Part shown: positions 3,641 through 26,245 of the stretch, in pieces
How the letters are laid out: each line of letters starts with the position of its first letter
Position numbering within the stretch: the stretch's first letter is position 1
From: a bacterium
Lineage (GTDB): Bacteria > Patescibacteriota > Minisyncoccia > Phycocordibacterales > Zambryskibacteraceae
Reading direction: 5' to 3'
NCBI GenBank assembly: GCA_030649135.1
Contig: JAUSGI010000005.1
Coordinates: forward strand, 1 to 64,000
Length of the DNA stretch: 64,000 nucleotides
Made by a program: the position numbers and the translations under genes
Notes under the pieces: model-generated
The model's database searches: none
Seen by the model: only the letters and a program-made list of their open reading frames with translations
What the model was told of the DNA's origin: nothing

Positions 3641-3713
3641 TAGTGTTGGGTTAACTCTTAAACAGCCGTTACCGTAACCTCGGCATCAAGCCGAGAGGGT
3701 TAATTATAGCTAA

Positions 3714-4247
3714 TTAACCCTGCTTCTGCGAATACTCTTCGTTGTATAGTTTTAGCCCTTCTTCAAAGGCGTTTTCCGCCTCAATTCTACCCTTAAAACC
3801 CTTAACCTCGACGACTTTGTCCTGGAGCTTCTTGTAGGTGCTGTAGAAATGCTCGATTTCCTTGAGAGTGTGGGGGTTCACGTCATTTAAGTCTTTGAGG
3901 GTGGCGAAACGCGGATCATCGACTGGCACGGCGATAATCTTGTCGTCTCCCTCGCCGGAATCAATCATGTTCATGATAGCCACCGGCCGGACACGCACCA
4001 GAATGCCGGGCATTAAGGGGTAAGTAGTGAGAATAATCACATCCAAAGGGTCCTTGTCATGCCAGAGAGAGCGCGGCACGAAGCCGTAGTCGAAAGGAAA
4101 GTCCTGCGCGGTATGAGCCACCCGGTCCAGGGCGATGAGGCCGGTCTTCTTGTCTATCTCGTATTTATTTTTCGAACCCTTGTTGATTTCAACGATGACG
4201 TTGATGGATTCCTTGGAACCCGGTTCTATGTCGTGCCAGAGATTCAT
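3714..4247 (-). CDS. ppa: inorganic pyrophosphatase
   Basis: 177 aa; family I PPase signature (EINKGSKNKYEID...DPLDVIIL...DDKII). Confidence 0.9.
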   Translation of the reverse strand: MNLWHDIEPGSKESINVIVEINKGSKNKYEIDKKTGLIALDRVAHTAQDFPFDYGFVPRSLWHDKDPLDVIILTTYPLMPGILVRVRPVAIMNMIDSGEGDDKIIAVPVDDPRFATLKDLNDVNPHTLKEIEHFYSTYKKLQDKVVEVKGFKGRIEAENAFEEGLKLYNEEYSQKQG

Positions 4248-4268
4248 AAGTTTTTATTATACAGCAAA

Positions 4269-5408
<1,140 letters not shown>

Positions 5409-14915: not shown

Positions 14916-15027
14916 TGCAAAAAGTATATATTTGGTCGTTATTTTACTAATAGAATATGGCTAAACTGCTATGTTTTGTACCAATCTTTCACTAACCATT
15001 ATAACCTCATATGATATAGTGTCCAGC

Positions 15028-16956
15028 ATGTCGAAACTCTCGGGAAATCTCAACTCTCGACAGCAAAAAGCGGTCGCCTCTATAGCGGGACCGGTCTTAA
15101 TCTTGGCGGGTGCCGGCGCCGGTAAAACCCGCACTATTGCTGAGAGAATCCGCCACCTTGTTCATGCTGGCGTGGCCCCTTCGGCCATCCTGGCCATTAC
15201 CTTTACCAACAAGGCGGCCAGGGAGATGCGCGAACGGATAGAGCGGGGATTGAGAGACAGCCCCGAACAACCTTTTGTCAGCACATTCCACTCTCTGGGG
15301 GTATATATCCTGCGAGAACAGTCGGCAAAAGTGGGCATCAAGAAACACTTCACTATTTTTGACCGAGACGATAGCAAAAAAGCGGTGAGAGAGGTACTGA
15401 TAACTCTCGGACTTGACCCGAAGACACATGACCCCGGCCGCATTATGAGCATCATTTCGAGAGAAAAGGGTAGGGGTATAGGTACGGAGGCTTATGGCGA
15501 CAACGAGACACGTGGCTATTTTCAAAACGTGATAGGGCAAGTCTGGCCGGCATACGAGAAACTGCTCGCAAGAGACAACGCGCTTGACTTCGATGACCTG
15601 CTTGTCAAAACCATGGGCCTCCTCCGCGACGACCGTGCGGTGCGCGAGCTTTACCAAAATATTTGGAAATATATCCATATAGACGAGTACCAGGACACCA
15701 ACCGAGTCCAATACGAGATTTCAAAAATGTTGGTGGGAGAAAATAAAAATATCTGCGTGGTAGGGGACATAGACCAGAACATTTATTCTTGGCGTGGCGC
15801 GGATATCAAAAATATTCTCGACTTCGAGAAAGATTACCCGAACGCGCAAGTAATTACACTAGAAGAAAATTATCGTTCCACCAAAACAATTCTCGAAGCA
15901 GCCAAAGTGGTGATAGAAAAAAATAAAATCAGGTTTAAAAAGAATCTTTTCACAGATAACCCCGCGGGCGAGAAAATTGGCTTGTTCGGAGGCTTCGATG
16001 AATCAAGTGAGGCGGAGTTTATCGCTAGCAGAGCCGAAGTGCTCATCAAACAAGGGGTGTCGCCGGGAGAAATTGCGGTACTTTTCCGAGCAAACTTCCA
16101 GTCGCGAGTACTCGAGGAAGCATTCATGAATCGCGGTATTCCTTACCAACTCCTCGGCACACGATTCTTCGAACGCAAGGAAATCAAGGACGTAATTTCA
16201 TATCTGCGTGCCGCCCTTAATCCGGAGAGTCTTTCGGACTTTAAGCGCATCATCAACGTGCCGGCGCGCGGTGTCGGCAAGACTACGGTGCTGAAAATAT
16301 TTGCGGGCAACGAGTCAACCCTGCCACAAACAATGAAAGTCAAACTGACAAGCTTCAGAAAACTGCTTAACGAAATCGCACAAGTTTCACAAACGAAGAA
16401 ACCGAGCGAGACTATATCTTTCATTATCAAAGTATCCGGACTGGAACAAGAGTGGAAAAATAGTGGAGATGAAGGCGTGGCCCGACTCGAGAATGTCTAC
16501 GAATTGGCAAACTTTGCTTCCCGATACGATAGCTTACCTCCGGAAGAGGGTATTTTGAACTTCCTCGCGGATGCGGCGCTTCAGAGCGACCAAGACGAAA
16601 TGAAGGACGGGGTACCTGCGGTACGTCTAATGACTGTGCACGCTTCCAAAGGTTTAGAGTTCGATATTGTTTTCGTCACCGGACTTGAAGATGGGCTCTT
16701 CCCACACCGGAAGGCAAATGAGGAAGCCATCGGTCAGGAAGAAAGAGAGGAGGAACGCAGGCTTTTTTATGTCGCGCTCACCCGTGCGCGCAAGAAAGTG
16801 TTTCTTTCGTATGCCGAGACACGCACCCTCTTTGGCAGAAGGCAAGTCAATATACCTTCTGAATTTATTTTTGATATTCCCGAAACGTTGGTTGAGGAAG
16901 AGTCTTTCGATGAGCATAGTCTACCCAGAAGGCCTCTCCTCCAAATCGATTTCTAG
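15028..16956 (+). CDS. pcrA: UvrD/PcrA-type ATP-dependent DNA helicase
   Basis: About 640 aa; Walker A AGAGKTRTI, helicase motifs (DEYQDTN, YRSTK, VTGLEDGLFPH). The ORF track starts at 14971, but MSKLSG at 15028 is the more plausible start. Confidence 0.9.
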   Translation: MSKLSGNLNSRQQKAVASIAGPVLILAGAGAGKTRTIAERIRHLVHAGVAPSAILAITFTNKAAREMRERIERGLRDSPEQPFVSTFHSLGVYILREQSAKVGIKKHFTIFDRDDSKKAVREVLITLGLDPKTHDPGRIMSIISREKGRGIGTEAYGDNETRGYFQNVIGQVWPAYEKLLARDNALDFDDLLVKTMGLLRDDRAVRELYQNIWKYIHIDEYQDTNRVQYEISKMLVGENKNICVVGDIDQNIYSWRGADIKNILDFEKDYPNAQVITLEENYRSTKTILEAAKVVIEKNKIRFKKNLFTDNPAGEKIGLFGGFDESSEAEFIASRAEVLIKQGVSPGEIAVLFRANFQSRVLEEAFMNRGIPYQLLGTRFFERKEIKDVISYLRAALNPESLSDFKRIINVPARGVGKTTVLKIFAGNESTLPQTMKVKLTSFRKLLNEIAQVSQTKKPSETISFIIKVSGLEQEWKNSGDEGVARLENVYELANFASRYDSLPPEEGILNFLADAALQSDQDEMKDGVPAVRLMTVHASKGLEFDIVFVTGLEDGLFPHRKANEEAIGQEEREEERRLFYVALTRARKKVFLSYAETRTLFGRRQVNIPSEFIFDIPETLVEEESFDEHSLPRRPLLQIDF

Positions 16957-16969
16957 TCTCTTACCACAT

Positions 16970-16988
16970 GTCGACTCCGGGAGTCGAC
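16970..16988. repeat. REP-like 19-bp perfect palindrome GTCGACTCCGGGAGTCGAC (copy 1, 32 bp upstream of the RAYT gene)
   Basis: One of three near-identical copies at 16970-16988, 17174-17192 and 17643-17661. Confidence 0.7.
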
Positions 16989-17173
16989 AGCAAGCTGATA
17001 AAAGGGCTATAATTCAATTATGAGAAACGTAAAACTAGTTGAAAACGAACTTTATCACGTGATGAACCGAGGTGTAGATAAAAGGTCAATCTTCCGGGAC
17101 AAAAACGACCTGGACAGATTTTTTGAGGGAATGCAGAAACTAAATGTGCTGACTCCAACTGGGCACTTAGCTC

Positions 17174-17192
17174 GTCGACTCCCGGAGTCGAC
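17174..17192. repeat. REP-like palindrome copy 2 (GTCGACTCCCGGAGTCGAC), in frame inside the RAYT ORF
   Basis: Encodes ...RRLPESTDKK... within the transposase. Confidence 0.65.
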
Positions 17193-17642
17193 AGACAAGA
17201 AGCTTGTTAAGTTCATAGCGTATGATTTGAACCCAAACCACTTTCATTTTATCTTGGAACAGGCTGCAGAAAGAGGCATAGAACGGCTAATGAATCGGCT
17301 CTGCATATCGCATTCAAAATATTTTAATCTTAAGTATCATAGGATGGGCACTTTATTCCAAGGTAGATTCAAAGCAATTCATGTTGATACGAACGAATAC
17401 CTGCTTCACTTAAGCGCTTATGTGAATCTAAACGATGTAGCACACACCCGCAACAGTAAACCGGGACTGTCTAAATCAAGTTGGGTAGAATATATTGGCG
17501 AGTCAAGAGAAGAATTTTGCGATAAGTCAATAATACTTGATCAATTTAAAAATGGAGGAGAATATAAGAGGTTCGCTGAAAGCACTTTGCGGGACATTAT
17601 TGATCGAAAGATTTTGCTAGCAGAACTAGAAGACGAATTGAT

Positions 17643-17661
17643 GTCGATTCCCGGAGTCGAC
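17643..17661. repeat. REP-like palindrome copy 3 (GTCGATTCCCGGAGTCGAC) at the 3' end of the RAYT ORF
   Basis: Lies 10 bp before the RAYT stop and the overlapping rsmA start. Confidence 0.65.
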
Positions 17662-17669
17662 AAGGCGAT

Positions 17670-18455
17670 ATGAAAGCAAAAAAGTCATTGGGGCAGCATT
17701 TTTTGAGAAGCGAGAAAGCCTTGCGCGCAATTGTCGAGACCGGAGACATTAACCATGGTGAAACAATCTTGGAAATAGGGCCTGGGCGGGGAGTTCTGAC
17801 AAAAAAACTCTTGGAGGCCGGCGCGAAAGTAATCGCAGTAGAAAAAGATGACGAACTCTACGAACTTTTGCGGCAAGTATACGAAAAAGAAATTGAAAAC
17901 GGGAAACTTGAATTAATTCATGGCGATATTATTGAATTTGATTTGTCTAAGCTAGCAGCTAAAACCTATAAGCTAGTGGCCAATATTCCATACAATATTA
18001 CAGGCGCTATTTTAAAAAAATTCCTTGAGACAAATTGTCAGCCGGAGAGAATAGTGCTTTTGGTACAGAAAGAAGTAGCCAAAAGAATCGTGGCTCAAGA
18101 CGGCAAAGAAAGCATTCTTTCTGTTTCAGTCAAAGTATATGGGGCACCAAGATATATAGAAACGGTAAAAGCAGGTTCATTTACTCCCATGCCCAAAGTA
18201 GATTCGGCTATTATTCTCATAGATAACATTTCCAAAAAATATTTTGCTCATTTTTCCGAAAAAGATTTTTTTACAACGGTTCGCACTGGATTCAAATCCA
18301 AACGCAAAAAACTTTCTTCCAATCTTTCGGCAATATTTGCTAAAGAAAAGGTCCTGGAAACATTTCGAAAACTGAATTTAGACGAGAATCTGCGAGCCGA
18401 GGACGTCGGGATTGAGACTTGGGGAAAACTTGTTACCCACCTGTGCTCTGATTAG
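17670..18455 (+). CDS. rsmA: 16S rRNA (adenine1518/1519-N6)-dimethyltransferase
   Basis: 261 aa; LGQHFL... and EIGPGRGVLT SAM-binding motif of KsgA/RsmA. Confidence 0.9.
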   Translation: MKAKKSLGQHFLRSEKALRAIVETGDINHGETILEIGPGRGVLTKKLLEAGAKVIAVEKDDELYELLRQVYEKEIENGKLELIHGDIIEFDLSKLAAKTYKLVANIPYNITGAILKKFLETNCQPERIVLLVQKEVAKRIVAQDGKESILSVSVKVYGAPRYIETVKAGSFTPMPKVDSAIILIDNISKKYFAHFSEKDFFTTVRTGFKSKRKKLSSNLSAIFAKEKVLETFRKLNLDENLRAEDVGIETWGKLVTHLCSD

Positions 18456-25556: not shown

Positions 25557-26198
25557 ATGTCTCCGAGTACAAATGCTACTCAAGAATTTGTTCCCATCAA
25601 GGAAGTGCGCGACGGCGTCGTCCTACTGAAAGATGGCGGCATGCGTGCCATTCTCTTGTGTTCGTCTCTAAACTTCGCGCTTAAATCCGAGGATGAGAGG
25701 CAGGCTATTCTTCTGCAGTTCCAGGATTTTCTTAACTCCCTAGACTTCTCGATTGAGATAGTAGTGCAGTCGCGCAAACTCGATATCCGGCCATACATAG
25801 CGCTACTCGAAGGGCAAGAAAAAATACAAACCAACAGTCTGATGAAAATACAGGTTCGAGAGTATATTGAGTTTATCAAGAGTTTCACCGAAAACACGAA
25901 TATCATGACTAAAAACTTTTTCATTGTGGTGCCATACAGTCCGGCCATGTTGAATGCCCATAAATCAGGGGGTATCGTCTCGCGCCTTGGATTCGGTACC
26001 AAGAGAGAGCGCGCGGCCGCCACAGAAGCGGGATTTGACGAAAATCGTAGCCAACTGGAAGAGCGGCTATCGGTGGTTGAACAGGGACTTATCCGTACCG
26101 GTATCCGCGTGGTGCGCCTCGGCACGGAAGAAGTCATTGAACTTTTTTACAAGGCCTTTAATCCGGGGGAAACGGAAAAGCCACTAAAAGTGAGCTAG
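25557..26198 (+). CDS. hypothetical protein (T4SS-like cluster)
   Basis: 213 aa; no recognisable motif. Confidence 0.45.
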   Translation: MSPSTNATQEFVPIKEVRDGVVLLKDGGMRAILLCSSLNFALKSEDERQAILLQFQDFLNSLDFSIEIVVQSRKLDIRPYIALLEGQEKIQTNSLMKIQVREYIEFIKSFTENTNIMTKNFFIVVPYSPAMLNAHKSGGIVSRLGFGTKRERAAATEAGFDENRSQLEERLSVVEQGLIRTGIRVVRLGTEEVIELFYKAFNPGETEKPLKVS

Positions 26199-26245
26199 CT
26201 CACTTTTAGTGGCTTTATTCACAATAGATAATTAACAATTTACAA

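Follow-up and report, generated by a model that had tools for sequence, protein, structure and literature searches.

Why should a single gene carry one and the same palindrome in front of it, inside it and across its end? The question is raised by contig JAUSGI010000005.1 (positions 1 to 64,000, here called the window) from a Patescibacteriota genome, where three palindrome copies accompany a gene for a 217-aa Y1/HUH protein resembling REP-associated tyrosine transposases (RAYTs; REP, repetitive extragenic palindrome). This gene (17020..17673, plus strand) lies between those for a UvrD/PcrA-type helicase (14971..16956, plus strand; the 5' neighbour) and RsmA (rsmA, 17670..18455, plus strand; the 3' neighbour). 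The answer that we favour, and think rather likely, is a REPtron-like unit: a resident, domesticated Y1 nuclease of the TnpAREP kind with a few cognate hairpins, mainly in its own gene. That the unit is a REPtron adapted to a gene-dense genome, its palindromes not scattered between genes in this Patescibacteria family, we also hold to be probable. Each gene of the family has a palindrome of its own, and all of its sites change together even where the gene stays at a fixed locus.

The 19-nt palindrome, GTCGAYTCC-S-GGAGTCGAC, occurs at 16970-16988, 17174-17192 and 17643-17661, and all three copies lie in or adjoin the Y1 gene. When up to three mismatches to the pattern GTCGACTCCNGGAGTCGAC were allowed, no fourth match appeared anywhere in the window; shuffled windows hold a mean of 0.02 matches, and none of 100 shuffles reaches three. 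An earlier reading of the letters with their open reading frames (ORFs), the sequence-only reading, had reported the three copies at this gene and a conserved extension, and both are borne out; the extension, (A)TGTCGA...TCGACA(R), brings the repeat to 22 nt. That reading had also allowed for a motif common throughout the genome; within the 64 kb the opposite was seen, the palindrome being confined to the gene. Its description of the repeat as perfect holds for copies 1 and 2 (9+1+9), and not for copy 3, where a single T-for-C change leaves a G.T pair on the plus strand. Copy 1 is the reverse complement of copy 2, since its centre is G and that of copy 2 is C; the centre of copy 3 is also C. 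The distances, given as 32 bp to the start and 10 bp to the stop, are slightly smaller: 31 nt separate copy 1 and the ATG, and 9 nt separate copy 3 and the stop codon. Folded as single-stranded DNA, each copy gives a stem of 9 bp closed by a loop of 3 nt, with energies of -8.9, -7.8 and -5.5 kcal/mol for copies 1 to 3 and a z-score of -4.5 for the first.

The window thus has three of the four sites that will be described for the family, all annotated without strand. Site U, (A)TGTCGACTCC-G-GGAGTCGACA(G) at 16968..16990, lies 12 nt past the uvrD/pcrA stop and in this extended form is placed 30 nt before the ATG. Site I1, GTCGACTCC-C-GGAGTCGAC(A) at 17172..17194, is read in frame as R-R-L-P-E-S-T (aa 52-58), as had been noticed from the letters, in a loop preceding the HUH-bearing beta-strand. 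Site T, (A)TGTCGATTCC-C-GGAGTCGACA(A) at 17641..17663, includes the one G.T pair and is read as M-S-I-P-G-V-D, which makes up the predicted disordered C-terminal tail of the protein; in the window clade the frame of T differs from that of I1 (SIPGVD versus RLPEST). The position homologous to the fourth site, I2 (17453..17470), holds a weak 5-bp inverted repeat, ACAGT-AAACCGGG-ACTGT, that has CCGGGA in common with the palindrome centre; it may be a decayed remnant, and is not significant alone.

The sequence-only reading of the 217-aa ORF as a protein with HUH and Tyr motifs was upheld. The protein passes Pfam Y1_Tnp (PF01797) with 33.2 bits over a cut-off of 23 (E 6.4e-8), its HUH motif (aa 74-76) is N73-H74-F75-H76, and the catalytic-type Tyr is Y134 in YVNLND; none of H74, H76 and Y134 varies among 28 aligned homologues. 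In the Y motif, Y134-V-N-L-N138-D, the Tyr and Asn are invariant, and the proline position is taken by D, N, H, E, K or Y. The C-terminus is a helical tail domain with an SKSSW motif. Together the motifs NHFH, LFQG, YVNLND and the SKSSW tail come closest to subclass 2.1 of the TnpAY1 proteins (PMC6006769, Table 1), a subclass described as being without REPs (PMC6006769).

An AlphaFold2 model of the protein (pLDDT 84, pTM 0.82) has as its best Foldseek match 4ER8, the E. coli TnpAREP with a bound REP hairpin (E 1e-6, target-normalised TM-score 0.63), followed at E about 1e-4 by the IS608 and ISDra2 TnpA structures 2VJV, 2A6M and 2XM3. The palindrome-coded peptides fall in predicted loops and a predicted tail that are modelled with low confidence: pLDDT is below 50 at aa 54-57 (I1) and aa 207-217 (the T tail), and the block at aa 141-150 averages 66. 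Orthologues that have no T palindrome terminate at ...ELE(D/E)xx; the final ~10 residues of the window protein are therefore the T palindrome, read through to the rsmA start. There the two genes overlap by ATGA (17670..17673, plus strand), as the sequence-only reading had it, which suggests that they may be translationally coupled.

Homologues of the protein, all of them from metagenome-assembled genomes, have the palindromes in a common layout. About 2,000 are close, nearly all in Patescibacteria, with 563 confirmed stretches in species-level genomes; a 50%-identity representative library yields 12,413, 3,342 and 108 clusters at E up to 1e-3, 1e-10 and 1e-30. Alignment shows lineage-specific short peptides (RNPVS, GHRVS, GSPAS, LPES and others) at the same three places of the protein; these back-translate to palindromes, and the DNA of 80 genome loci agrees. 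Almost without exception a gene has a palindrome peculiar to it, whose stem measures 8-17 bp and whose loop 1-5 nt, and which recurs at as many as four conserved places: U in the promoter (centre 31 nt before the ATG, interquartile range -40 to -26), I1 near aa 60 (centre +190, 187-196), I2 near aa 155 (centre +469, 460-487) and T at the stop codon (centre 14 nt after the stop, 10-21). For 84 Patescibacteria homologues, sites were defined by position, with no selection for similarity, and perfect stems of at least 7 bp were counted; these are present at U in 66, at I1 in 54, at I2 in 43 and at T in 62, and in 8.9% of control windows. A one-off absorption of a REP into the gene, or the in-frame insertion of a REP doublet (REPIN), as had been proposed from the letters, does not fit an I1 site that is conserved in position in so many genes and changes together with the flanking copies.

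The layout reaches into distant members of the family. The I1 site is found in paralogues of only 31-42% identity, and more divergent paralogues (27-42%) have the flanking copies only, or these plus I1; HMMER alignments of distant members often break in two around the I1 position (about aa 57-62), as would be expected of longer insertions at that place. At the foot of the hairpin the window clade has TGTCGA and most relatives have (C)ACTTGG. In the ACTTGG lineages I1 and I2 both read QLG-xxx-SK(L), and KLV (AAG TTG GTG, after I1) and VHQL (GTT CAC CAA CTT, before I2), at positions equivalent to aa 60-63 and aa 141-143 of the window protein, are reverse complements of each other as DNA; part of the palindrome foot is thus conserved coding sequence at I1 and I2. 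Many sites have decayed into imperfect repeats of unchanged length, and the palindrome-less sites, of the same length too, look decayed and not excised; foot-to-foot 'empty' sites, sought among the family loci as proof of excision, were not seen.

The gene itself stays in place. Its closest relatives, P0007 (68% identity), P0006 (66%) and P0010 (61%), occupy the same locus as in the window, sharing the order LysM-M23 peptidase gene (opposite strand), uvrD, Y1, rsmA. The order uvrD-Y1-rsmA is kept in nine further genomes, with UvrD 58-71% identical, and is found in 12 further gene lineages (loci L081-L088 and nine genome loci); the sequence-only view of a domesticated gene is well matched by this persistence. 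Orthologues at this one locus carry different palindromes at the same sites: TGTCGA-CTCC-S-GGAG-TCGACA at U, I1 and T in the window, TGTCGA-AACC-C-GGTT-TCGACA at U, I1 and T in L081, GTCG-TCTCC-C-GGAGA-CGAC at the same three in L085, and TGTCGA-CAC-GGA/TCC-GTG-TCGACA at U and T in L088. Hence this is a resident gene whose palindromes are replaced together. Among the other syntenic orthologues L001 has the GTGGACAC type, perfect at I1 and I2 with a one-mismatch copy at U; L006 (U, I1) and L013 (I1, I2) have the GTGGAAGC type, L011 (U, T) the ACTTGGAAG type, and L020 (U, I1, T) the CCCAGGAGCT type. The inner 6-nt stem is identical in 70% of site pairs within a gene and in 2% between genes. Four genes about 77% identical in nucleotides keep the foot and flanks, and only the inner 11-13 nt differ. 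L024 has an identical imperfect sequence, ACTTGGAGGTTGAGCTTCCAAGT, at U and T, so that its copies must derive from one another and were not separately selected for pairing. L045 is a mosaic, with U and I2 of one type and I1 and T of another, which means that replacement acts site by site.

This residence bears directly on whether the locus is simply an active insertion sequence (IS) of the IS200/IS605 type, U and T being the left and right subterminal hairpins of a ~700-bp element between uvrD and rsmA. There is some likeness to IS608 and ISDra2: the Y1/HUH chemistry on hairpins, a fold resembling their TnpA, and hairpins just inside both ends of a unit that fits exactly from the uvrD stop to the rsmA start; genomes may also hold several paralogues, and at L029 a truncated Y1 gene abuts a full copy. 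We nevertheless consider an active IS very unlikely. The locus is occupied in relatives with only 61-68% Y1 and 58-71% UvrD identity, and no near-identical copies were seen, the paralogues being about 50% identical or less; a conserved locus with no identical copies is a strong argument against an active element. The window has no second Y1 copy, and a phage search gave no match. The ORF appears to be coupled to rsmA, and the ends are symmetric here and asymmetric in IS200/IS605. The transposases of subclass 1.1, that of IS200, are of about 150 aa with Y-x3-Q, unlike the present protein with its 217 aa, Y-x3-N and extra tail domain (PMC6006769, Table 1).

Two observations concern rsmA. This gene adjoins Y1 in two arrangements, uvrD-Y1-rsmA at 9 of 80 genome loci and rsmA-Y1 at four loci (L018, L036, L045, L051); the adjacency may stem from a functional tie, from a region favoured for insertion or from synteny within lineages. 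At L020 (10001-10930) the Y1 ORF runs through the T palindrome into the rsmA frame, giving an ORF of 930 nt, and rsmA matches in two frames; either the palindrome has caused a fusion or frameshift, or the assembly is in error.

What might hold a palindrome at site U? Promoters were called by consensus matches only; by these, a promoter-like site lies at 16984..17013 on the plus strand (TCGACA, 18 nt, TATAAT; 11 of 12 consensus matches), whose -35-like hexamer TCGACA is the right end of the U palindrome. The -10 box TATAAT ends 6 nt before the ATG and no Shine-Dalgarno motif intervenes. The same is seen throughout the family: of 63 genes, 56 have a TANNNT whose end lies 4-12 nt (most often 6) ahead of the start codon, compared with 11% at random positions, and no Shine-Dalgarno-like motif precedes the start codon in any of the 63. 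Since the -10 box lies so close to the start and such a motif is absent, the Y1 mRNA is probably leaderless family-wide. As a rule the end of the U palindrome is found at -2 to +10 nt relative to the -10 box; in the commonest layout the palindrome's left foot supplies TTGG ~17 nt upstream of the -10, and its right foot, ...AAGTG, gives a TG just before that box. As judged by these matches, U appears to occupy the -35 to -10 region, an operator-like position, and to be in part the promoter itself.

Such a position could mean that the palindromes are operators and nothing else, i.e. double-stranded sites to which a regulator binds as a dimer. This regulator might be Y1 itself, through its helical C-terminal domain; U would be the operator, the intragenic copies would be auxiliary operators for looping, and no single-strand chemistry would be involved. 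U does lie between -35 and -10 in most family members, the palindromes are perfectly symmetric with orientation irrelevant, and subclass 2.1 has been reported with helix-turn-helix-like C-terminal domains (PMC6006769). We find this account unlikely. Complementarity extends up to a centre of 1-5 nt while sequence and stem length (8-17 bp) vary, which is the pattern of hairpins and not of half-sites; the catalytic HUH and Tyr residues are invariant; solo copies lie inside unrelated genes; and arrays occur of different palindrome types.

The hairpins might alternatively act in mRNA, where they could influence its stability, its processing by RNase III, attenuation or the coupling with rsmA. Both I1 and T belong to the transcript, copy 3 would pair via G.U on the sense strand only (-5.5 versus -4.4 kcal/mol), and REPs act as RNA elements in other bacteria (PMC3733652). 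Against this stand the position of U upstream of the probable leaderless start and the orientation of asymmetric loops, same and inverted being about 1:1 for every site pair. Non-Watson-Crick pairs across the family show no G.T excess either, with 11 GT/TG and 13 AC/CA in a test that is noisy because some mismatches lie in chance stem extensions, and no T-runs follow T. The loops, the pairs and the place of U upstream of the likely transcription start argue for a DNA-level element, and a purely RNA-level role seems highly improbable.

Two roles considered for site T were set aside. As a promoter of the downstream gene it shows no enrichment (TANNNT follows T at 0.22, and at 0.19 in random positions); as an intrinsic terminator it has neither terminator-like sites nor T-runs after it. 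An antisense -10 box next to it (0.55) is probably a by-product of the TAA stop-codon context.

In the REPtron-like reading, the Y1 enzyme would bind the palindromes as single-stranded hairpins, by analogy with 4ER8, and binding at U would autoregulate transcription. Of the sites within the gene, I1 and I2 would lie in surface loops or linkers of the protein, and T at the stop codon or across it. Copying between sites would keep the copies alike and occasionally seed new ones; it might come about through Y1, which would cleave and transfer strands at the conserved foot, or through template switching by replication at the hairpins.

That palindromes have been copied to new places, where they mark points of recombination or insertion, follows from copies outside the four sites. 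In or near family genes there are 240 cognate palindromes, and 924 kb of flanks contain 21 solo copies, about half of them in frame inside other ORFs. At L038 (7659-7677) a 2787-aa surface-protein ORF has the in-frame palindrome GGAGGC-TTC-GCCTCC (NLEASPPS); a homologue of that protein at L064 (668-684; 509 aa within the locus) has GGAGGTT-C-AACCTCC (NLEVQPPS) at the same site, each being the genome's own variant. In L001 the rsmA orthologue (3687-4304) bears an in-frame cognate palindrome at 4114-4132, GTGGACAC-CGA-GTGTCCAC (peptide GHRVST), so that its RsmA reads ...ERICGHRVSTGGK... where that of the window has ...KRIVAQDGK.... Upstream of a full Y1 gene, L032 (472-700) has a truncated Y1 N-terminus and, after it, an array of four palindromes that belong to three types. 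At L029 (1208-1400) an older Y1 gene, truncated, more divergent and provided with a TATAAT box of its own, stops precisely where the U palindrome of a full gene lies. These last two loci suggest insertion or recombination at palindromes. A scan of metagenomes for the exact window palindrome gave 36 single matches, none with a Y1 homologue nearby; being on unrelated, mostly high-GC contigs, they are taken as chance matches, uninformative on copy number here.

The likenesses within a gene could also have arisen with no part played by the enzyme. The palindromes would then not be Y1 substrates; they would be quasi-palindromes that perpetuate themselves, with template switching during replication, or gene conversion over short tracts, serving to keep them perfect and to copy them from one site to others close by. 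They would be tolerated in loops, and associated with the gene for historical reasons. Close orthologues switch inner-stem type with little change in protein, which passive copying between nearby sites would explain no worse than enzyme specificity. The mosaic of L045, the identical imperfect copies of L024, the many decayed sites and the random loop orientation are likewise as passive copying would have them. Further, 15 of the 84 genes have one perfect site or none, from which it follows that the palindromes are dispensable. On the other side, the same four sites recur in paralogues down to 31-42% identity; the palindromes accompany one particular enzyme family, and it is just this kind of hairpin that its structurally solved relatives bind; solo copies far from the gene share the type of the local gene; and paralogues within one genome carry distinct types. 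We regard passive palindromes as rather unlikely. Both this account and that by operators explain less well the invariant catalytic residues, the maintained complementarity and the solo copies in unrelated genes.

Stem-type switching and the dispensability of the palindromes weigh against a REPtron-like unit, and so do several further points. Autoregulation through U is suggested by the position of that site alone. The protein misses the NCBIfam equivalog for REP_Tyr_transpos (NF047646; 21.9 versus 80 bits), its Y motif is Y-x3-N-D where class 2 TnpAY1 proteins have Y-x3-N-P (PMC6006769), and a sequence-profile search of the PDB gave no match at E up to 1. REPtrons have a GTAG guide tetranucleotide, and the window palindromes lack GTAG and CGTC; REPtrons have tens to hundreds of copies, compared with a few in the Patescibacteria family. 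The 63 kb of the window outside the gene contain no copy, and mobilisation is weakly supported for the source genome (three copies, all at the gene, in 64 kb). Of the sequence-only description, a RAYT-like gene with REPs, part stands, as the gene is Y1/HUH, has TnpAREP 4ER8 as its nearest structure and is flanked by cognate palindromes. The word REP in its usual sense does not apply, given the missing outside copies, the missing GTAG/CGTC tag and the NCBIfam score.

How far does the unit resemble known systems? Like the REPtrons of E. coli (4ER8), S. maltophilia and Marinomonas (PMC3479197, PMC8266576), it combines a Y1/HUH fold, for which 4ER8 is the best structural match, with a gene that is resident and not mobile and with cognate palindromes that flank this gene in either orientation. 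REPSm of S. maltophilia are likewise perfect short palindromes with 3-nt loops, and in Marinomonas REPs are likewise concentrated near the gene (PMC8266576). The Patescibacteria family differs in having copies inside the coding sequence at fixed positions, in falling short of the equivalog cut-off with a Y motif devoid of proline, and in genomes that may hold several Y1 paralogues, each with its own palindrome. The closest precedent for the intragenic copies is subclass 2.4 (RAYT group 4), with in-frame REPs inside tnpAREP and 'double-foot' symmetric REPs (Quentin et al. 2018, PMC6006769); shared features are frame-preserving cognate palindromes within the own gene (here RRLPEST at I1 and MSIPGVD at T), full double-foot symmetry and peripheral positions in the protein. 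In subclass 2.4 it is the interval from HuH to Y that receives the insertions, and these differ in length and place (PMC6006769), whereas here the sites are fixed, I1 preceding the HUH motif (aa 52-58 versus 74-76 in the window) and I2 and T following Y134. Promoter and stop-codon sites are occupied too, the phylum is another one, and the motifs (NHFH, FQ, YVNLN, SS tail) resemble subclass 2.1 instead.

Parts of this picture are on record elsewhere: REPs that lie within genes or overlap RAYT gene ends, stop codons furnished by REP termini, REPtrons in species without REP families, and palindromic elements that, like those described here, are tolerated in frame in functional genes of a reduced, gene-dense genome, that of Rickettsia (PMC3733652, with works cited there on these elements and intragenic REPs). 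As REP termini can, site T supplies stop codons in relatives, as TAA-CTTGG. The Rickettsia palindromic elements are about 100-150 bp long, and those found here are of 19-37 bp and tied to the Y1 gene; no enzyme is known to be associated with the former. A full-text literature search found no RAYT/TnpAREP report for the Candidate Phyla Radiation or Parcubacteria, the few co-occurrences being incidental. New, then, are the phylum and the subgroup of the protein, and so is a strict layout of four sites, one of them in the promoter. Copies as few as these, most of them within the enzyme's own gene, are also new, as is so clear a record of palindromes turning over together, with compensatory changes, while the orthologous locus stays fixed.

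How RAYT/TnpAREP proteins and palindromes are matched, and what they do for the cell, are open questions (PMC8266576, PMC6006769), for which the family is a compact natural experiment: three to five palindromes per gene at fixed positions in many independent lineages, with an orthologous gene at a fixed locus whose palindromes have been rewritten many times. Co-evolution, specificity (two to three variable stem base pairs) and the copying mechanism become directly testable, making this a natural model for the joint evolution of hairpin-cutting enzymes and their DNA partners. It extends REPtron-like systems to Patescibacteria and to proteins like those of subclass 2.1, described as being without REPs, and it shows gene-dense genomes to be places where such elements can persist in a promoter and, in frame, within genes.

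We tentatively offer one more specific possibility, that of a self-homogenising hairpin cassette, in which the foot (ACTTGG...CCAAGT or TGTCGA...TCGACA) would mark docking sites and the Y1 nuclease would swap the inner 11-13-nt hairpin. Its docking sites, on the same tentative footing, would be the gene's own promoter, two loops of its own protein, the stop codon and a few other genes (the giant surface protein, rsmA). If so, one gene would be the enzyme, the main reservoir of its substrate and, via U, its own regulator; a REP-RAYT partnership would be played out almost wholly within coding DNA, rewriting short peptide segments as a by-product.

Two other perfect palindromes in the window are unrelated to the Y1 gene. 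One, at 26177-26216, is loopless and 40 nt long (aaagccactaaaagtgagct|agctcacttttagtggcttt), and the other, at 2781-2814, has 34 nt (aaacaaaaacacgccct|agggcgtgtttttgttt); both may be bidirectional terminators.

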